From a virus, in UHGV virus genome UHGV-1280367: DNA of 29,457 nucleotides. One strand, given 5' to 3'. The position numbers and the translations under genes were made by a program. Positions 2,982 through 18,169 of this stretch are shown here, piece by piece. The notes beneath the pieces were generated by a model that was given only the letters and a program-made list of their open reading frames with translations, ran no database searches and had not been told where the DNA came from. How positions within the stretch are numbered: the stretch's first letter is position 1; every line of letters starts with the position of its first letter.

Positions 2982-4232
2982 GTGCTTACCGATACAAAAT
3001 TAAAGAACCTCAAGCCACAGGACAAACTGTACAAAGTTTCCGATCGTGACGGGCTGTATGTAGCTGTGCTTACGTCAGGTACGGTCTCGTTTCGCTATGA
3101 CTACCGTATCAACGGTCGCCGCGAAACACTGGTAATCGGGCAGTATGGGCGTGACGGTATCAGCCTGGCAGAAGCGCGAGAAGAACTGATTGCTGCAAAG
3201 AAGCTGCTTAAAGCAGGCCAGTCGCCGGCTGCGGCTAAACGTGACGGTATCAAAAAGATTCGTGGTGCCGAGACGTTTGCGGTACATACCGACAGTTATA
3301 TGAAACACGTCATCCTGGCTGAAAGTACCCGCGCAATGAAGCAGGCAGTGATCGACCGTGACATACTTCCTGTTCTTGGCAACAAAATGATGACTGAAAT
3401 TACCACATCGATGGTTCGTGATTTGTGTGACCGGATTGTCGAACGCGGTGGTCGGGCAACAGCTGTACAGGCCAGGGAGATCATCAGCAGCGTATACCGT
3501 CACGCCAATGACCGTGGTCATGGTTTGTTTAATCCTGCGGCTGACATTAAACCTTCGTCTATCGCCATATTTAAACCACGAGAGCGAACACTGACACCAG
3601 AAGAAATTGGCCTGTTCTTCCGCACGCTGGATGCCATTGGTGCTATGGGCACTATGAAAATGGCTTTAAAGCTGGTGCTTATCACTATGGTTCGTAAAGG
3701 CGAATTCACCAACGCAACGTGGGATGAAATAGATTTTAAAAAATGGACATGGACAATTCCTTCAGACCGCATGAAGGGAAGCCGGGCGCACGTTATTTAC
3801 CTGCCTAAACAGGCTCAGGATATATTGATCGGGTTGCAGATGTGCGCTGGTGGAAGTGAATATCTGGTTCCTGGTCGTTACAATTTCCGGAAGCCATTAT
3901 CTAATGCCGCGCTGAACTCTCTGATCGACAGAACGGTGAAAATAATAAATGAAGATGGTGAGCATATTCAGGGCTTCACCGTACACGATATGCGCCGTAC
4001 AGCCAGTACGTTGTTGCATGAGGCTGGTTATCCTTCAGACTGGATTGAAAAGGCTCTGGCACATGAGCAGAAAGGTGTGCGCGCCGTATATAACAAAGCG
4101 GAATACGCCAGACAGCGCGCCTACATGTTGCAGCAGTGGGCCGATATGATCGATTCCTGGATTGACGGGGAGCATACGGATCTGATTCCGTTCTCCCCGT
4201 CGAAGTTTGAGAAGTGGATGGCGGGGGAATAA
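2982..4232 (+). CDS. int: Tyrosine integrase (P4-like, with N-terminal arm-binding domain)
   Basis: 416 aa, GTG start. The N-terminus MLTDTKLKNLKP...DGLYVAV and a C-terminal catalytic region with conserved R, H-x-x-R and Y residues fit the phage integrase family. Confidence 0.85.
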   Translation: MLTDTKLKNLKPQDKLYKVSDRDGLYVAVLTSGTVSFRYDYRINGRRETLVIGQYGRDGISLAEAREELIAAKKLLKAGQSPAAAKRDGIKKIRGAETFAVHTDSYMKHVILAESTRAMKQAVIDRDILPVLGNKMMTEITTSMVRDLCDRIVERGGRATAVQAREIISSVYRHANDRGHGLFNPAADIKPSSIAIFKPRERTLTPEEIGLFFRTLDAIGAMGTMKMALKLVLITMVRKGEFTNATWDEIDFKKWTWTIPSDRMKGSRAHVIYLPKQAQDILIGLQMCAGGSEYLVPGRYNFRKPLSNAALNSLIDRTVKIINEDGEHIQGFTVHDMRRTASTLLHEAGYPSDWIEKALAHEQKGVRAVYNKAEYARQRAYMLQQWADMIDSWIDGEHTDLIPFSPSKFEKWMAGE

Positions 4233-4235
4233 CGT

Positions 4236-4430
4236 TTAATTATTCTGCTGATTTTCTTCCATCTCGGCTTCTGCTGCCAGTGATTCAATTTTATCTGTGA
4301 ATATTGCTGACAGTGTTGCAAATTCAGCATCAGTGACAGCGGGAATTGGAACAAACCTGATCCCGCTGTGTGCAAGCATGTTTGCAGTTTCAAGGCATTT
4401 TCTTAAATCTGCTGGTGATGCCCTGTTCAT
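4236..4430 (-). CDS. Small hypothetical protein (64 aa), translationally coupled to the methyltransferase
   Basis: Internal ATG at 4430 of ORF 4236..4550 overlaps the methyltransferase stop (ATGA). Acidic C-terminus. It converges on the int stop with a 3-bp gap. Confidence 0.4.
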   Translation of the reverse strand: MNRASPADLRKCLETANMLAHSGIRFVPIPAVTDAEFATLSAIFTDKIESLAAEAEMEENQQNN

Positions 4431-5077
4431 GCTGCACGCTCCCGCCCCTGGTTGTCTGTTGGTGACAGCGGAGTATTGCTGAATGCATTTGTTAATCTGG
4501 CAATATCCAACGCGTATCCAGGGTGTAGTTGCACTGCCGGGTCTTCGCACTGATTACCCCAAACATCGAAACCATGAGACGACTGGCGGGCGAACAGTTC
4601 AATGCGAGAAACATCGCCTAACAATTGCACAAGTTTTTCACGAACGATATCTGGTTTTCTTGAATGCTCAAGCCGCGGTGCGGTAAATGACTGAACGATC
4701 CCTGCATTAATGCGCGTAGGTAGTTTTCCCTTTACCGCAAACAGGCAATCTTCACTATTGGCGCGAGTCATGTGCCCCATACCCATAACCAGTTTATCTG
4801 GTTGTCGACTACCACATTTTATCCACGTGAAGCCCTTCATGGTCATCAGACGGAATCCCCAGGATTCAACAACTTTTAGTGCTTCGAGTGGTTGTGTTGG
4901 CACCCACCACATGGCCAACAGACAGTTTTCATCGGCCAAATCCCACACAGGAAGGCGGCAGATATCCAGCACACTCATAACCGGATATTTAAAACCGGCA
5001 CCGCGATTACCATCTGCGGCTTTGTCCCGGTATACCCAGGGTGGATCTGCATAGATTAGTGTGTATTTCTTAGTCAT
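4427..5077 (-). CDS. MT-A70 family N6-adenine DNA methyltransferase
   Basis: 216 aa. N-terminal YADPPW catalytic motif and overall pattern typical of phage orphan Dam-like methylases. Confidence 0.75.
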   Translation of the reverse strand: MTKKYTLIYADPPWVYRDKAADGNRGAGFKYPVMSVLDICRLPVWDLADENCLLAMWWVPTQPLEALKVVESWGFRLMTMKGFTWIKCGSRQPDKLVMGMGHMTRANSEDCLFAVKGKLPTRINAGIVQSFTAPRLEHSRKPDIVREKLVQLLGDVSRIELFARQSSHGFDVWGNQCEDPAVQLHPGYALDIARLTNAFSNTPLSPTDNQGRERAA

Positions 5078-5369
5078 AAACCACCCCGCAACATCCTATG
5101 CCGCTATAGTCGCCACGGCGAAGGCCGTTACCTTTTGTGATACATTGGTCCCTGCGAACCGCGATCCTTGCACGCTCAACATCACCAGAAGCAACATCCA
5201 TACACTGAAGCCAAAGGTGGGCGGCAATGCGGAACTGCCCTTTTTTCTCTCTTTCAATCGCGCGTTTTTCGATCTCTATCGCCGCAGGAGTAACGGCAAC
5301 AACCTTTGAAGGGCTGCGCATTGAAACCTTGTTCATGTGATATTTTTCAAGTCGGCTTAACTTTCTCAC
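5070..5369 (-). CDS. Hypothetical protein
   Basis: ORF overlapping the methyltransferase start by 8 nt; start is uncertain (GTG at 5369 or ATG at 5336). No recognisable motif. Confidence 0.35.
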   Translation of the reverse strand: MRKLSRLEKYHMNKVSMRSPSKVVAVTPAAIEIEKRAIEREKKGQFRIAAHLWLQCMDVASGDVERARIAVRRDQCITKGNGLRRGDYSGIGCCGVVYD

Positions 5370-5478
5370 TTAATCCAACCCTCTCTGAAAATTAATGCCA
5401 GCAGATAAAGCCATGCAGAAACAGAGGCCAGGAATAAGTACCATCCTGACCATTTGCTCCAGTGCCTTAGCAGCACAC

Positions 5479-5727
5479 TCATGCCGCGTTGCTCACGGGA
5501 CGATATACACGTTGCTGAACAGGAGGTTTTTTACCCTGGAACTCTGCCGGGCTTGCTGCCTGACGTTCATCAAGCCAACGCTCAACTTCATCACGGTTCC
5601 ATGCGCAGCGTTTATCGGTGATATACCAGCGTTTAGGAAATTCCCCTGCGCGCTCCATACGGTCGATAGTGCTCCATGACAGTGGCACCACCGCCATGAG
5701 TTCCTTCTTACCTAATGCACCTTTCAT
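5479..5727 (-). CDS. AlpA-family DNA-binding protein (putative excisionase or regulator)
   Basis: 82 aa; the segment LSWSTIDRMERAGEFPKRWYITDKRCAWNRDEVERWL matches the AlpA/Xis-like helix-turn-helix pattern. Confidence 0.65.
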   Translation of the reverse strand: MKGALGKKELMAVVPLSWSTIDRMERAGEFPKRWYITDKRCAWNRDEVERWLDERQAASPAEFQGKKPPVQQRVYRPVSNAA

Positions 5728-5776
5728 AAATACCTCTCTTGGTTGCAGTGCGGCGCGCGTGGCGCCGCGGTGGTGG

Positions 5777-6799
5777 TTACTCGAATTCTGGACGCATATC
5801 GTTAAGCGTCATCATGAATTTTTGGTGATATTCATCACCGAGCTTGTCAGCCATGGTGTTAATTTCATTTTCAGCGCGCTTGAACATCGTTTTTGCATCT
5901 TCAGCAGATGGATCCAGGCTATTAAGTATCGCGATGATATATTCTCGAGCTTCTTCTCGTTCTGAATCTGAAATTGGCGATAGGTGTTGACGCTCATCGT
6001 CAACTACGGAATATTCACCAGTGATAACAGCTGCGTTATCTTGGCTAAGTCCAGCTTCAGCGCGCTCATCCATAACAACAGCCTTCTGCATTTCAATAGA
6101 AACAGGAAGATATTTGAACAGTCGGCGAATTACTGTTTTTTTAGCCATCTCATCGAAGTGATCAACCCATGGGCCACTGCTACCGGCTTTGCTCAGTGCA
6201 CGAACTTTCTCAACGTCTGCCCGGCTCATAACTTCAAATTGGACTCCGCCATCTTTCAGTCGTGCAACGGCGTAAACGTGCGTTAATTCTCCGCGGTCAC
6301 CTGTTTCGCAAGGTAAATGCTCGAGCGTTTCTTCCAGGCCGTATGAGTAGCTGAATTTGTCGTTTGTATGTACGGTACGAGCCGAGATACTCAGGATCTG
6401 CCCAGAGCGGCGGGCAAGGTCAATCATTCCGCGATAGCCGATAATCAGCTGTGCTTCTGTAGATACGGTTTCCCATCTTCCATTTACTTTCTGGCGTTTG
6501 TCGAACGGTATCAGGTAAGCGTGTCCAAGAGCTCCGCCTGGTTCAAGACCCAATTGGGCACATTGCATAATTGCCCCCAGGAAGCTGGCTTGGTCGCATG
6601 ATGCAAGTTTTGGAACCTTTCGGATCTCTGTGGTTGCTATGCGCGCCAGACGGTCTGCTGTCATGTGCTTTGGAAGTGCCAAAGCCATCTGAGCTTTAAT
6701 TTTTGGGTCTGCCAGAAGTCCGGCCAGAGTTGTTGGTTTCTCATTATGATGTGCAACTTGGTTACCGGTAGCCGCTGCCTTAAGTGCATTGATAGACAT
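5777..6799 (-). CDS. recT: RecT-family single-strand annealing recombinase
   Basis: 340 aa; blocks such as HMTADRLARIATTEIRKVP, QLIIGYRGMIDLARRSGQI, THVYAVARLKDGG.QFEVM and AKKT.IRRLFKYLPVSIE closely follow E. coli Rac RecT as I recall it. Confidence 0.85.
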   Translation of the reverse strand: MSINALKAAATGNQVAHHNEKPTTLAGLLADPKIKAQMALALPKHMTADRLARIATTEIRKVPKLASCDQASFLGAIMQCAQLGLEPGGALGHAYLIPFDKRQKVNGRWETVSTEAQLIIGYRGMIDLARRSGQILSISARTVHTNDKFSYSYGLEETLEHLPCETGDRGELTHVYAVARLKDGGVQFEVMSRADVEKVRALSKAGSSGPWVDHFDEMAKKTVIRRLFKYLPVSIEMQKAVVMDERAEAGLSQDNAAVITGEYSVVDDERQHLSPISDSEREEAREYIIAILNSLDPSAEDAKTMFKRAENEINTMADKLGDEYHQKFMMTLNDMRPEFE

Positions 6800-6808
6800 T
6801 TTTTCTCC

Positions 6809-7708
6809 TTACTTCATTCTGAAGACGCGTTGTGTCGTTGTTGTTTTGAATTTTTCGAATAACTCAGGGTGTACTGACTGGAATAGCTTCTGGTCGAATC
6901 TGTTGCTGATCTGAGATTTCCATGTGCAGAGCGGCTTTCCGTCCAGGGTCAGGACTGAGTGCTCTTGCATGTACATCTTCAGCTTCTCTTCTGATATAGC
7001 TATTTCTTCTTCCAGTGATTTTCTGCGTGACTTCATGTCTCGTAGATCGTTGAATAGTGCGAGTGCCTTTCCGTCAGCCTCGATACTTGTACCGGCATCT
7101 TTCTCAAACATCAGTGATACATCGCTTACGCTGGTAGCTTCCGGCGGGTTAAGATTTTTCACTCGGTCCCAGAAAGCGATTTCTTTTTCTAAGATCGCCT
7201 GGATAGTTTCTTCATCACGCTCAACCCGATAGATTCGGAAGTCGTCGCCACCGATAAGCACACCGAAAACGCATACCTGTTTGTTTGTAACCATCAACCC
7301 GTGCATGGCCTGGGCCGTGTAATGCACAGGAATTGCATCTGTCTGGATTTCTCCCCATTCTTTGGCTTTGAACGGACTAACTGTTTTGATCTCAATGTTC
7401 TCGCCTGACGCTGCTTCTGCATCGATCTCAGCTGCAATAAAATCGTAATCACGGTGGATATAGCGGTTTCCGCGATGAACGATTTCCATCCCTGTTTCCT
7501 CAGAAAGCAGGTCTATTACGTATGGCTCCATACGCTGGCCACGCGTGAAAACTTTCTGCTTGCTTGGGTCTACTGGTTTGACACGTGGCTGGACCTTATC
7601 CAGATAAACCTCAAGCGGGGTGCGCCATGGGCTAATTCCAAGAATCCCTGCAACATCGCTTCCTCCGATGTATTTTGTTCTATCCATGATTCCAGCGTTC
7701 CGCATCAT
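6809..7708 (-). CDS. YqaJ-like (lambda-Exo fold) recombination exonuclease
   Basis: 299 aa. N-terminal IGGSDVAGILGISPWRTPLEVY is the YqaJ hallmark. Sits immediately upstream of recT as the expected exo/annealase pair. Confidence 0.7.
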   Translation of the reverse strand: MMRNAGIMDRTKYIGGSDVAGILGISPWRTPLEVYLDKVQPRVKPVDPSKQKVFTRGQRMEPYVIDLLSEETGMEIVHRGNRYIHRDYDFIAAEIDAEAASGENIEIKTVSPFKAKEWGEIQTDAIPVHYTAQAMHGLMVTNKQVCVFGVLIGGDDFRIYRVERDEETIQAILEKEIAFWDRVKNLNPPEATSVSDVSLMFEKDAGTSIEADGKALALFNDLRDMKSRRKSLEEEIAISEEKLKMYMQEHSVLTLDGKPLCTWKSQISNRFDQKLFQSVHPELFEKFKTTTTQRVFRMK

Positions 7709-8004
7709 GCCGCGTCCCTCTGCCCATCAATCTGATCAGCCAGATCCCAGCGGGCGATAATTGCCATTGCCTCGCGACGGTAGGCATCCATCAGTTCTTC
7801 GAACTCAGGGCTGTCTTTAGCAGCCTCCAGTACTTCCTGACGAACGCCTTTGCCTGTTACAACGTCGAAAGTTGAGGACAGTTGATGAAGTCGGATGCTC
7901 TCAATCAGTTCAACTTGTCGGTCATATAGCTGTTCTGACAGGCGGTAGTCCTTGTCGAATGCCAGCATGATTTTTTGAAGATTTTTCTGCTGATTAACGT
8001 TCAT
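7705..8004 (-). CDS. Hypothetical early protein
   Basis: About 100 aa from the ATG at 8004 (the track ORF extends to 8019). Overlaps the exonuclease start; no recognisable motif. Confidence 0.4.
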   Translation of the reverse strand: MNVNQQKNLQKIMLAFDKDYRLSEQLYDRQVELIESIRLHQLSSTFDVVTGKGVRQEVLEAAKDSPEFEELMDAYRREAMAIIARWDLADQIDGQRDAA

Positions 8005-8007
8005 TAT

Positions 8008-8159
8008 CAGCCCTCCCATATCTCGTTATCGTTGGCCACATCGCGAGCTTCTTTGCTGACGAAAGCCCACTTAATGCCTTCCTGTAAGGTGCGGAACTTC
8101 CAGCTCATGAATCCGCATGCAGTAACGCAGTACCAACCGTTGATGATTTTCCACTGCAT
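8008..8159 (-). CDS. Small hypothetical protein (50 aa), first gene of the leftward early operon
   Basis: Found by manual translation of the minus strand: MQWKIINGWYCVTACGFMSWKF..., stop 3 nt before the next gene's start. Below the ORF-track length cutoff. Confidence 0.3.
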
Positions 8160-8178: not shown

Positions 8179-8255
8179 TTACCGTTGAGGTAATAATTAT
8201 GCTTATTTGGTTTGGTGTCAATAGATATGAGTTAAAAAAATTACCCGTAAGGTAA
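8179..8255. promoter_or_regulatory. Leftward early promoter/operator region with two TTACC-N5-GGTAA palindromes (8179..8193, 8241..8255)
   Basis: Two exact copies of the palindrome lie between the repressor terminator and the first leftward gene. Confidence 0.5.
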
Positions 8256-11769: not shown

Positions 11770-12330
11770 ATGGAAAGTAATATCAAAGGGTTAGTTTACG
11801 CCGGGCATGAGATGGCTTCGGAACTGAAAGCAGAATGTGGTGCCGTTGATATGCGTAGTGTGGCAAAGCTGATCAGCGATTTGGCAACGCAACTGGAAGT
11901 GCAACTGGTGCGTGCTAATGCGATGGCGTCGGAGAATGAGGCGTTGAAGTCGAACCTGATTTACTGGGGCGGCGAAGATTCAGGGGCTGTCAGAAGTCCG
12001 CTTGATTACGCCCGTGCAGCCGGGCTGGAATCTGGAGAGGAGTTTGAGATGCAAGTGGCAGCCAGAATGCCGAACCTGACTTATCGCGTTGTGTCGAATT
12101 CCCGATTCAGAACAACAATAGAACTGGTTGACGGATCATTGCCGGAAACCCCAGCCACCGATGCTTTTCTGGCTGAAGTACGGGCGCAGGCGTTTAATGA
12201 CCTTTGCTCGGCGTTCGTTAAACACGCGAATCTCGCGGGAATGGATGATGGTGAGCTAGTGAGTCTTAAATATGCGACGGACGCCCTGCTGCATTGTGCG
12301 GAACAGCTTCGCAAAGGAGGCAACCAGTGA
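11770..12330 (+). CDS. Hypothetical protein
   Basis: 186-aa ORF with compact spacing to its neighbours; no recognisable motif. Confidence 0.4.
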   Translation: MESNIKGLVYAGHEMASELKAECGAVDMRSVAKLISDLATQLEVQLVRANAMASENEALKSNLIYWGGEDSGAVRSPLDYARAAGLESGEEFEMQVAARMPNLTYRVVSNSRFRTTIELVDGSLPETPATDAFLAEVRAQAFNDLCSAFVKHANLAGMDDGELVSLKYATDALLHCAEQLRKGGNQ

Positions 12331-12872
12331 GTGTAACGGTTGAAAAGATTGATGTGTTGTCATTCGTTATAACCGGTGCAGAGCGACTAGATCCGGTTCG
12401 AGTGATGATTGAAAACTACGAACCTGGTAAGGGAAGAATCACCATCACCAGCTACGGAAAAGCGTGGACTGCGGCTTGGTTTGCTATGGGCGGTGATGAT
12501 GTGCAGACGTTCATTAAGCGAGTCAGCAACGACTATCTAATCGACAATTTCGACCCTCAACTGCTAAGCACGGTCGACGATGACAACGATGCAAATCTGC
12601 TTTTCGTGAAGTCAGAAATCATAAAGTTACGAAGAGAGAGAGAAATCGACGCTGTACAGGCTCGCGAAATGTGGGACGAGGCGGAAAACGCCGATGACGT
12701 AAAAGAAAGCTGCTGCTGTTTCGGCGTCGGTAACAAACTACTGAATCTCTTTGGTGATGATCCGTGGTATGCCAACTGGCCAACGATACCAAACCCGAAA
12801 TACCAGTATCTGGAACGCGTACTTAATGCAGTGAGAGACGGTCTTAAGCAAATAGAGAAGGTGGAACCATGA
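12327..12872 (+). CDS. Hypothetical protein
   Basis: GTG start at 12327 overlaps the upstream stop (GTGA), with a strong AAAGGAGG ribosome-binding site 7 nt upstream. Confidence 0.45.
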   Translation: MSVTVEKIDVLSFVITGAERLDPVRVMIENYEPGKGRITITSYGKAWTAAWFAMGGDDVQTFIKRVSNDYLIDNFDPQLLSTVDDDNDANLLFVKSEIIKLRREREIDAVQAREMWDEAENADDVKESCCCFGVGNKLLNLFGDDPWYANWPTIPNPKYQYLERVLNAVRDGLKQIEKVEP

Positions 12873-13168
12873 CTGTATGTCTTATTGATAAACGTCGACG
12901 TGGGCAACAAATACCATCTGTTGAAATGCCGAATCACACATGGTTTTGCGTACTTGATATCGATGGTATGGATACGTTGGTTGACACTCGTCATTACTGC
13001 GATACCGCAACAGCTACTCCGGCGAAAGCAAAGAAAATGGCTGCTCTGATAGAAAACTGGACTCCACCTGATGGTTGGTGCAATGGGAATGATCGAGATT
13101 GGCACGAAAAAATGAAGGGCTATATCTGCGATTTTTTACGTAAATGCAACGGCTTCAGGGTGATGTGA
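12869..13168 (+). CDS. Hypothetical protein
   Basis: 99-aa ORF overlapping the upstream stop. Confidence 0.4.
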   Translation: MTVCLIDKRRRGQQIPSVEMPNHTWFCVLDIDGMDTLVDTRHYCDTATATPAKAKKMAALIENWTPPDGWCNGNDRDWHEKMKGYICDFLRKCNGFRVM

Positions 13169-13169
13169 C

Positions 13170-13454
13170 ATGAGCAAGATTGACTATCAGGCACTGCGTG
13201 AAAAGGCAGAGAAAGCAACGTGTGGTGTGTGGTCGCTCGAATATGGAGAGGGCCGATTTGATGGTGATGATGCACTAATTCATCGCGAGGCTGCTGGGTA
13301 TATTCCCATTTGCAGAATTGAAGGAGCGCATCCAGAAAGCGGTTTCGATGAAGATTTCCAAATGGATTCGAAAGAATGCATTGACGTAATTCGTGAAGAA
13401 GTAAAGCGATGGAATGATTCCCGCGCCGCTGGTATTCGCATCAAAGGAGAGTGA
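13170..13454 (+). CDS. Ea22-like small protein
   Basis: N-terminal DYQALREKAEKATCGVW resembles the ead/Ea22-like family motif (recognition by eye). Confidence 0.45.
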   Translation: MSKIDYQALREKAEKATCGVWSLEYGEGRFDGDDALIHREAAGYIPICRIEGAHPESGFDEDFQMDSKECIDVIREEVKRWNDSRAAGIRIKGE

Positions 13455-13455
13455 G

Positions 13456-13647
13456 ATGAACGGACAAATATCAATTGTTCGACCAGGAGCATGTGACGAT
13501 CGCGAAATACGAATGATTATTCGTCTGGCGAGGGGGAAAACAATAACTGCTCTCATTACTCCAGAAAATCTCGCATTAGCATTAACCGGAAAGTCAGACC
13601 TGCCAGTAGAGCTAAAGCTGCGAAATGTTGAGATTAAGGTGAAATAG
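13456..13647 (+). CDS. Hypothetical small protein (63 aa)
   Basis: ATG at 13456 with a GGAGAG ribosome-binding site, directly after the upstream stop. Confidence 0.35.
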   Translation: MNGQISIVRPGACDDREIRMIIRLARGKTITALITPENLALALTGKSDLPVELKLRNVEIKVK

Positions 13648-13649
13648 TT

Positions 13650-14402
13650 ATGAATACTCTTACCAAAGAATGGTTACAGAACACGATTACCGGAATTGAG
13701 TCGATAATAGACGATAAATCGTTTGTATGTAGTGAAATAGCATTCGAAATAGGTGTGGTTAACAACATACTTACCGCATTTAAAATTGCACTGGCATCGC
13801 TGGCAGCAGTATCGGATGAACGGGCAGCCTATGAATTATTTATGGAGAAGCGTTTCGGGGAATCTGTAGATCGCCGCAGGGCAAAAAATGGTGATAGAGA
13901 ATACATGGCATGGGATATGGCGCTTGGCTGGATTATCTGGTGTCACCGCGCCGCCATGCTTCAGGGAGGCCAACCTGTAAACCAAACTTACAACTTGCCA
14001 GAATTAATCGAAGGCATGGAAGTTTCCATTGATGTAAGCACTTGTGATGCTGATTTAGGTAATCGCTATTTCGGCACCGTCACCGAGGCGTTAGAACTTG
14101 ATACTGCCAAGAATGGTTACATCCTCCTGGTTCAGGACGCAGAGCCAAACTTCGATGTAAATGGCAACTCTCCGGCAACTCCGGATAGTTGGATAAGCTG
14201 TAGTGAGCGAATGCCGGAAGACACCAAAATGTTACTGGCATTTAGTCAAGGTGAAATCGTGGCCGCATATTGGAACTGGGTTGTAAATCCAATTGATTAC
14301 AAAAAATACAGAGCTTTCACGTATTTATCAGGAAATATCCTAGATGACGTAACCCACTGGATGCCGCTGCCAGAACCGCCGCAGGAGGTTAACCGTGGCT
14401 AA
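13650..14402 (+). CDS. DUF551-domain protein
   Basis: C-terminal ...SERMPED...THWMPLPEPP is the characteristic DUF551 ending (recognition by eye). Confidence 0.55.
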   Translation: MNTLTKEWLQNTITGIESIIDDKSFVCSEIAFEIGVVNNILTAFKIALASLAAVSDERAAYELFMEKRFGESVDRRRAKNGDREYMAWDMALGWIIWCHRAAMLQGGQPVNQTYNLPELIEGMEVSIDVSTCDADLGNRYFGTVTEALELDTAKNGYILLVQDAEPNFDVNGNSPATPDSWISCSERMPEDTKMLLAFSQGEIVAAYWNWVVNPIDYKKYRAFTYLSGNILDDVTHWMPLPEPPQEVNRG

Positions 14403-17450: not shown

Positions 17451-17470
17451 GTTTGTGACATGTCACAGAG

Positions 17471-17893
17471 CTAGAAAATAATTTCATCAAATGCAGCATT
17501 TATTGCCTTTGCTTCGCTAATGGCGCCTTGTTTATCGACAATAGCTTTTTTACCAAGCACCTCGGCAAGGCACTGTAGCTTCATGTTGTATAAGTGTTCG
17601 CTCATGTAATCATTATCACTTTTTGCTTTAGCGCAAACAGAGCGAGAAATATCAAACACATCGCCTTTTTCCATTTCAGAACGTTGTGCTGTTATCCAGT
17701 CATGGAACGTAACGCTAGTACCATGGTCTTCTCTAAGAGTTAACCCGGTCAGCCCCTCACTCTGAATTACTTCGTAATGCATTTCATTACCAGCAAAAAC
17801 GCCATAAAAAATGCAGTCTTCAGCCTGAACGATACGAGAATATTTTAATGGCCATTCATTTAGATACTTAGCCAACATATCAATTGTCTTCAT
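17471..17893 (-). CDS. Reverse-oriented cargo gene of unknown function (140 aa)
   Basis: The only minus-strand gene inside the late region. Visibly more AT-rich than its flanks. Ribosome-binding site AAGGTGAG ahead of the ATG. No motif I recognise; soluble, no transmembrane segment. Confidence 0.6.
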   Translation of the reverse strand: MKTIDMLAKYLNEWPLKYSRIVQAEDCIFYGVFAGNEMHYEVIQSEGLTGLTLREDHGTSVTFHDWITAQRSEMEKGDVFDISRSVCAKAKSDNDYMSEHLYNMKLQCLAEVLGKKAIVDKQGAISEAKAINAAFDEIIF

Positions 17894-17904
17894 AATCTCA
17901 CCTT

Positions 17905-18092: not shown

Positions 18093-18169
18093 TGGCGTGG
18101 CATGCAGGATTCGAACCTGCGACCAACCGCTTAGAAGGCGGTTGCTCTGTCCAGCTGAGCTAATGCCAC
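18093..18169 (-). tRNA. tRNA-Arg, anticodon UCU
   Basis: Minus-strand sequence GTGGCATTAGCTCAGCTGGACAGAGCAACCGCCTTCTAAGCGGTTGGTCGCAGGTTCGAATCCTGCATGCCACGCCA folds by eye into a cloverleaf: 7-bp acceptor stem, D arm GCTC/GAGC, anticodon loop CTTCTAA, T arm GCAGG-TTCGAAT-CCTGC, encoded CCA. Close to E. coli argU as I recall it. Confidence 0.85.

Follow-up and report, generated by a model that had tools for sequence, protein, structure and literature searches.

The short genes adjoining the integrase gene (int) of the virus genome UHGV-1280367 are best read as the int-proximal end of an early-left operon that carries a solitary DNA methylase together with a PerC-like and an Orf63-like gene, the latter two being separate cassettes whose products are not methylase subunits. 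We assign this reading a probability of about 70%. The analyzed stretch of 29,457 nt, referred to below as the window, is a phiV10/epsilon15-like Uetakevirus genome of the temperate podovirus type. It aligns to phiV10 over most of its length and is presented in virion gene order, in which the lysis genes are followed by a terminator and an AT-rich stretch and then by int. By megablast, 17 phage records covered positions 4100-5800 at 95.8-98.9% identity, including phiV10, the O157 typing phages 9 and 10, TL-2011b, ZX5, and phiv142-3; more distant matches included epsilon15, SPN1S, and Enterobacter phage Tyrion.

The three ORFs of interest correspond to PhiV10p34, p33, and p32 (96-99% identity, identical gene order), which are annotated in phiV10 as a PerC-family activator, an adenine methylase, and a DUF1382 protein. 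In the two phages the genes, their overlaps, and their position relative to the converging int are all alike, and the methylase proteins are 97% identical. Differences were found in the PerC gene, which in the phiV10 RefSeq record starts at an internal ATG (88 aa) and was read here from a GTG (99 aa), and in the RecT and exonuclease genes, which in the window are of the epsilon15/EC21 type and not of the phiV10 type. The cluster is therefore already known, having been in GenBank since the phiV10 and epsilon15 deposits with each gene assigned to a family, and it consists of ordinary accessory genes for temperate phages. Its significance as it stands is small, since it is annotated, its families are known, and the 1.7-kb stretch was found in 565 of 5426 complete E. 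coli genomes (~10%).

Layout of the cluster and its place in a probable early-left operon

The methylase gene (4427..5077, minus strand; 216 aa) lies between two small ORFs on the same strand, and all coordinates proposed for this arrangement by the initial annotation matched the sequence, as did the junctions. The methylase start reads MTKKYTLIYADPPWVY, and its DPPW motif was located at residues 11-14 by a sequence check. Upstream, the 3′ end of the PerC-family ORF (5070..5369, minus strand; a small basic protein of 99 aa from the GTG, orthologous to PhiV10p34 and epsilon15 gp31) overlaps the methylase start by 8 nt (ATGACTAA); the ORF ends ...GGGGTGGTTTATGACTAA, and its final 8 nt also open the methylase gene. 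Downstream, the methylase stop shares the tetranucleotide ATGA with the start codon of the DUF1382 ORF (4236..4430, minus strand; PhiV10p32 orthologue), and a Shine-Dalgarno-like GGGAG is found 8 nt upstream of that start. The product of the latter ORF has 64 aa and is indeed acidic (10 D/E versus 5 K/R; pI 4.5). A gap of 3 bp (CGT) separates the DUF1382 stop from the stop of the converging int (2982..4232, plus strand), a tyrosine integrase with P4-type arm-binding and catalytic domains (Pfam PF13356, PF22022, and PF00589). The GC content across the cluster was 0.48-0.51, and the composition profile showed no anomaly. A search with Rfam yielded no RNA family in the cluster region.

The overlaps do not end at the PerC-family ORF. 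It is coupled via GTGA to an ORF for a predicted membrane protein of 38 aa (5366..5482, minus strand; PhiV10p35 orthologue by the phiV10 annotation, phrog_17484 at 4.7e-27), which in turn is coupled via ATGA to an AlpA-like gene (5479..5727, minus strand; PhiV10p36 orthologue). The AlpA-family HTH protein is a likely excisionase or regulator (Pfam PF05930, 1.1e-05; phrog_66, "excisionase and transcriptional regulator"). Since the overlaps extend upstream in this way, the methylase gene is the fourth of five chained genes rather than a gene with two special satellites. The five short genes (AlpA/Xis-like, 38-aa, PerC-like, methylase, and DUF1382), linked by start/stop overlaps of 4-8 nt, would probably be translated in a coupled fashion from a single leftward mRNA subject to repression in the lysogen.

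Farther upstream in the putative leftward operon, genes for RecT (5777..6799, minus strand) and a YqaJ-type exonuclease (6809..7708, minus strand) were identified from their ORFs and from the RefSeq annotation of a 99.2%-identical E. coli EC21 locus. A consensus scan detected a candidate early-left sigma-70 promoter-like site at 8193..8221 on the minus strand (TTGACA-17-AATTAT, 10/12 matches). This site follows the terminator of the repressor gene, and epsilon15 has annotated repressor-binding sites at the matching position, upstream of gp37. Between the promoter-like site and position 4236, no terminator-like sequence was detected on the minus strand. The earlier placement of the cluster at the distal end of an early-left operon is thus supported by the leftward overlapping run, which lies downstream of the promoter-like site adjoining the repressor gene, and judged from the sequence it appears reasonable to regard the cluster as the int-proximal end of that operon. 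The region would then be the counterpart of the lambda exo-xis accessory region.

The methylase, PerC-like, and DUF1382 ORFs are real genes and not chance ORFs, because all three exceed the thresholds of curated families and show low dN/dS values. Against diverged orthologues, purifying selection was apparent for all three (dN/dS 0.05-0.13 overall), with values of 0.05-0.09 for the methylase, 0.12-0.13 for the PerC-like gene, and 0.08-0.10 for the DUF1382 gene. Nonconservation of the small ORFs, which would have spoken against the original proposal, was not observed.

Identity, target, and role of the methylase

The methylase matched the Pfam MT-A70 model (PF05063) from end to end (model positions 1-172 of 172; 1.8e-22, 80.5 bits, cut-off 23.9) and also matched phrog_359 (1e-119) and PADLOC MTase_II (2.5e-77). 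The best PDB sequence match was Tetrahymena MTA1 (1.4e-13), and human METTL3 was matched at 7.6e-06. An AF2 model reached a pTM of 0.77, and METTL3 (E 4e-13, TM 0.66-0.70) and MTA1 were the top Foldseek matches of this model. The Pfam score and the METTL3/MTA1 fold together support the earlier assignment of the protein as an MT-A70 adenine methyltransferase, an N6-adenine enzyme of the beta class. Motif IV (DPPW) lies N terminally, ahead of the AdoMet-binding region, and the motifs are thus in permuted order; SRKP (residues 139-142) and ELFAR (160-164) have their aligned counterparts in SQKP and EIFAR of MTA1. All three motifs were invariant or nearly so in 37 methylase homologues. Residues 19-29 and 95-106 were modelled with low confidence, and we take these loops to match the METTL3 substrate loops by position. 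No separate target-recognition domain was recognized by Pfam or in the AF2 model, according to which the protein is little more than an MT-A70 catalytic core. To our knowledge, all solved MT-A70 relatives are heterodimers with an inactive paralogue.

The orphan status proposed for the methylase was upheld. Its neighbors are the PerC, DUF1382, and int genes, with no cognate restriction endonuclease gene adjoining, and no restriction enzyme is present in the complete phiV10 annotation. In the window segments that do not match phiV10, only DUF and phage domains and no REase domain were detected; three ORFs there, together with 57-446 and 7705-8019, gave no Pfam match and might in principle encode a novel nuclease.

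According to our preferred reading, the methylase would be made early after infection or induction and would methylate phage DNA during replication, at a short motif that contains adenine. The progeny genomes, fully methylated as a result, would be either protected from methylation-blocked restriction systems or marked correctly for Dam-dependent host processes. The two genes that share the operon would have roles of their own, the PerC-like gene being a backbone gene of the phage group and the Orf63-like protein, by analogy, a pro-lytic developmental factor of the lambda type.

If a single target has to be named, GATC is the best guess, at about even odds, because it is the specificity of the only tested relatives. 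With the MT-A70 enzyme p32 of Serratia phage vB_SspM_BZS1, the closest of the tested relatives, in a dam- host, plasmid DNA was resistant to MboI and sensitive to DpnI, from which it follows that p32 methylates GATC, and the enzyme of Tn1549, with which the prokaryotic MT-A70 subfamily was defined as its prototype, has the same GATC specificity (PMC7556043). BZS1 p32 resembles the window methylase in being a DPPW orphan of ~220 aa that belongs to the same prokaryotic MT-A70 subfamily, and its gene likewise closes an early operon close to int and follows a small ANR/PerC-like gene; homologues of p32 occur in HK639, phiES15, and Klebsiella prophages. However, the window methylase is 40-44% identical to BZS1 p32 and HK639 gp35, and a ~23-residue insertion that these enzymes carry after TW(I/V)K is missing from it. 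The loop in question corresponds by position to the METTL3 interface loop and was disordered in the AF2 model of the window methylase. Given the low identity and the missing insertion, the specificity of BZS1 p32 is not simply transferable, and that of the window methylase may differ from GATC.

In the literature searched, we found no report of activity, target, or expression for the methylase or for relatives of more than 45% identity, nor a target sequence for the short-form phage MT-A70 methylase as a group, and the methylome papers on STEC O111 and ST131 contained no assignment for an MT-A70 prophage enzyme. The short form is widespread and is also found in an int-proximal position in many Shiga-toxin phages. 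Knowledge of the target would tell whether the methylase of phiV10-type and Shiga-toxin phages amounts to a second Dam, has a new specificity, or is promiscuous.

An anti-restriction role would be a reasonable generic expectation, and the motif would decide between this benefit and Dam-like housekeeping. With GATC as the target, the mark would already be supplied by host Dam, and it would be less evident that the enzyme simply protects from E. coli restriction. It is thus conceivable that the enzyme is mainly a Dam-like regulatory or replication enzyme and not an anti-restriction device, keeping phage GATC sites fully methylated during rapid replication with possible effects on SeqA/MutH, expression, packaging, or the lysis-lysogeny balance. 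We regard this as unlikely. The GATC specificity of both tested prokaryotic MT-A70 enzymes (PMC7556043) is in its favor, and, as the host has Dam already, a second GATC methylase would add dose and not a new mark. Furthermore, the accessory region that houses the gene corresponds to exo-xis of lambda, which modulates the lysis-lysogeny decision (PMC5575149; PMC10869804), and stable lysogeny of the Stx phage 933W reportedly needs host Dam (as cited in PMC3342100). Nevertheless, the GATC assignment for the short subgroup would have to be carried over from the 40-44%-identity relatives with the extra loop, and the methylase is dispensable in many relatives, being split or pseudogenised at three loci (L130, L185, and L201) and absent from several others. 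Counts of tetranucleotide palindromes showed a mild under-representation of GATC in the window (O/E 0.75), a value that is uninformative and argues neither way.

We give very little credence to the idea that the methylase acts on RNA (m6A) or on single-stranded nucleic acid instead of duplex phage DNA. Several sources automatically annotate the protein as "N6-adenosine-specific RNA methylase IME4", but this name is an automatic COG label. Similarly, the mRNA methyltransferase METTL3 is among the closest solved folds of the model, but by sequence the protein matched the DNA 6mA enzyme MTA1 best in the PDB. The absence of a recognizable DNA target-recognition domain would fit an RNA substrate, and the orphan methylases M.EcoGII and M.EcoGIX, of prophage and plasmid origin, do act on RNA or ssDNA; these, however, belong to a different (DPPY) family, and those MT-A70 enzymes from bacteria and phages that have been tested act on duplex DNA, which they methylate at GATC (PMC7556043).

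Other orphan adenine methylases were considered as relatives of the window enzyme and rejected. M.EcoGI and M.EcoGII are nonspecific prophage enzymes of the DPPY beta class with 349 aa. M.EcoGIX and M.BceJIII are DPPY enzymes acting on ssDNA, of which M.EcoGIX is plasmid borne, and Hia5 and Hin1523 are Dam-like alpha-class enzymes, Hia5 being Mu-like. M.EcoGII and M.EcoGIX have ~350 aa and a TRD, and none of M.EcoGII, M.EcoGIX, and Hia5, the familiar promiscuous orphan methylases, is an MT-A70 enzyme. As solitary adenine methylases of mobile elements, M.EcoGI/M.EcoGII, M.EcoGIX, and Hia5 may nevertheless work like the window methylase; they are silent in the lysogen or donor and are thought to protect incoming or progeny DNA.

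The two small proteins and their relation to the methylase

Both small ORFs had initially been described as uncharacterised, which did not hold for either. A homology search matched each of them to a curated family, although an assignment of the 99-aa protein to the ANR (AraC negative regulator) family failed. This protein matched the Pfam PerC model (PF06069) at 6e-07 (30.1 bits, cut-off 22.6) over model positions 5-50 of 90 only, so that the match covers only the central helical part of the family model. It further matched phrog_868 ("transcriptional activator") over its full length (6.5e-62). With the NCBIfam ANR model (NF033650), it scored 23.6 bits, below the cut-off of 32, compared to 50.9 bits for BZS1 p33. 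We therefore consider it, on the basis of these matches, a PerC-family member. EPEC PerC and the ANR regulators are likewise small, basic, helical, and encoded on mobile elements. By tblastn, close relatives were found only in 36 Uetakevirus-type phage records. The GTG start is supported by epsilon15-type orthologues, which start with ATG at the same residue (MSKLTRLEKYH vs MRKLSRLEKYH).

The 64-aa protein is a homologue of lambda Orf63, a member of the DUF1382 family, for which an NMR structure and published phenotypes exist. It matched Pfam PF07131 over model positions 1-60 of 60 (1.4e-30, 105.7 bits, cut-off 27), phrog_292, and lambda Orf63 in the PDB (8DSB; 5.8e-13 across 61 residues, ~49% identity). 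The 64-aa start is favored over a GTG-started form of 104 aa because the Pfam model covers positions 1-60 and because at one locus (L026) only the 64-aa ORF is open. Residues 24-30 read IRFVPIP, of which F, V, and both P residues were invariant in a six-sequence alignment; in lambda Orf63, the dimer is bridged by the central-strand residues F28, V29, and P32 (PMC10869804). Lambda Orf63 is a dimeric early protein of the exo-xis region whose structure was solved by NMR and for which a pro-lytic effect on phage development was reported, the effect having been shown only in lambda and Phi24B (PMC10869804; PMC5575149). Both the DUF1382 gene of the window and lambda orf63 belong to the early leftward genes that separate the recombination genes from int, but the lambda gene is flanked by orf61 (DUF1317) and orf60a and has no methylase gene nearby, whereas the window gene adjoins the methylase gene.

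The initial annotation had presented the small ORFs as partners of the methylase, and we scored the neighbors at 102 methylase-homologue loci and 102 DUF1382-homologue loci. The DUF1382 sampling comprised the best 80 matches, among which phiV10-like phages dominate, and it gives no unbiased co-occurrence statistic. Because the sampled loci are mostly near-identical relatives, the adjacency counts are not independent events. In the Uetakevirus-type group, the trio of AlpA, the 38-aa protein, and PerC formed a fixed backbone. The interval between PerC and int was variable and contained the methylase followed by DUF1382 (phiV10 type), DUF1382 followed by the methylase, or DUF1382 alone. In PAS61, a NinI-like phosphatase gene occupies the DUF1382 position after the methylase, and in epsilon15 and SPN1S unrelated ORFs of 60 aa replace DUF1382 beside the methylase. 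A DndB/DGQHR gene overlaps the methylase start in SPN1S and E. coli EC21; among the small ORFs on either side of the methylase genes of HK639, BZS1, epsilon15, and SPN1S, Pfam matched only SPN1S_0033, as DndB. Elsewhere, methylases of 65-85% identity were placed differently: lambdoid phages carry them in the NinB-NinD slot, Klebsiella prophages next to an HTH_ParB gene, and other phages after the lysis genes. In Stx2a phages such as TL-2011c, such a methylase lies in the exo-xis region and is followed by a DUF1382 gene (TL-2011c gp14 is DUF1382 by Pfam), and in lambda and 434 Orf63 is next to DUF1317 and the methylase is absent. Neither small gene is thus a dedicated partner of the methylase. 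Since any one of the three genes can be found in related phages without the other two, the simplest reading of these arrangements is that the methylase, PerC, and DUF1382 genes represent three independent cassettes in one accessory slot and not an obligate module.

A functional module, in which the methylase is regulated, targeted, or read out by the Orf63-like dimer, the PerC/ANR-like protein, or both, would resemble the eukaryotic MT-A70 enzymes that need noncatalytic partners. Start/stop overlaps do connect all three genes; however, the phosphatase of PAS61 holds the DUF1382 slot with the identical 4-nt overlap, and tight coupling therefore characterizes the operon rather than this pair. 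In favor of a module, DUF1382 adjoins MT-A70 genes in at least three or four arrangements and in both orders, with the methylase first in the phiV10 and Stx2a-phage types and DUF1382 first, with a 4-nt overlap, at loci L042/L043 and L064/L067. In addition, an ANR/PerC-like gene lies directly upstream of the distant (40-45% identity) MT-A70 gene in Serratia phage BZS1 and at locus L095. Against this stand the relatedness of the sampled loci noted above, the methylases without the other two genes in the nin-region, ParB-adjacent, and lysis-adjacent slots, and the DUF1382 genes without a methylase in lambda, 434, and five further loci (L189, L193, L194, L203, and L204). Moreover, PerC keeps its place where the methylase has moved 150-1200 nt away. 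The modelled methylase is a bare catalytic core with two disordered loops, and the solved METTL3 and MTA1 are known only in complexes, but BZS1 p32 cloned by itself in a pET vector showed activity (PMC7556043). We therefore consider a module very unlikely and retain the reading of a solitary methylase with independent cassettes.

Likewise, we think it highly improbable that the recurrent methylase-DUF1382 joins reflect a functional link in which the small proteins target, restrain, or read out the bare-core methylase. If they did, the pro-lytic Orf63 of lambdoid and Shiga-toxin phages would act via DNA adenine methylation. Work on the methylase target would also bear on any role of the Orf63-like or PerC-like protein in methylation. 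Methylase and DUF1382 genes were found joined by 4-nt overlaps, in both gene orders, among Uetakeviruses and among Stx2a phages, of which more than 100 sequenced genomes show such a join, and ANR/PerC-like or DndB-like genes recurred directly upstream of MT-A70 methylase genes.

Methylase decay and neighboring genes

Among the loci collected for neighbor comparison, three (L130, L185, and L201) were found to carry a methylase frame that is broken into two ORFs, although the prophages in question are otherwise phiV10-like or related. The methylase gene is thus dispensable and decays at times. In some relatives, a gene for a DndB/DGQHR (ParB-like) protein of 331 to 355 amino acids is inserted between the PerC and methylase genes, sharing 4 nt with the start of the latter. 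Such genes lie on the minus strand in phage SPN1S (SPN1S_0033; L003, 2286-3281) and in E. coli EC21 (L004, 2972-4039). Assignment to DndB was obtained with Pfam (1.3e-42) and PADLOC (up to 5.8e-38), and no other dnd genes were present at these two loci near the DndB-like gene coupled to the MT-A70 methylase.

For the PerC gene itself, alternative starts at 5369 (GTG) and 5336 were compared in the window. The RefSeq annotation of phiV10 places the start at an internal ATG, resulting in a product of 88 amino acids (L001, 12971-13237). Because orthologues of the epsilon15 type have an ATG start codon where the window has its GTG, and because the N-terminal residues (xKL[ST]RLEKYH) are conserved, the 99-amino-acid form is the likelier product. 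This form is GTGA-coupled to the ORF upstream.

Int-proximal region and genome order

A small DUF1317 gene adjoins the PerC gene in epsilon15, SPN1S, Tyrion, and related phages. DUF1317 is the family of lambda orf61 and was assigned by RefSeq annotation (L002, 3719-3826; NC_016761 and NC_031077). With this gene and the DUF1382/Orf63 gene, the Uetakevirus region next to int is a counterpart of the lambda exo-xis region. The part of the window ahead of int (1-2980) contains lysis genes, followed by a terminator at 2835-2858 and a stretch rich in AT (GC content of 0.38), and the window therefore displays the gene order of the unintegrated form (virion/attP). The same int adjoins guaA in E. coli EC21.

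Mosaicism and accessory segments

The RecT and exonuclease genes (window 5781-7704) share 83.5% identity with epsilon15 and 99.2% with the EC21 prophage, whereas the differing phiV10 allele at this position is annotated as a RecE-RecT fusion. These identities demonstrate mosaic exchange directly upstream of the methylase cluster. The late-early accessory segment at 11954-14370, for which phiV10 has no counterpart, codes for DUF7739, an Ead/Ea22-like fragment, and a DUF551 protein; two further ORFs of this segment (186 and 192 amino acids) had no Pfam match. A tRNA-Arg gene (anticodon TCT; 18093-18169, minus strand; ARAGORN; Rfam, 71.7 bits) is placed between the terminase and portal genes. In this part of the window, the phiV10 alignment is interrupted, with 17467-17894 unmatched and the match resuming from 17895.
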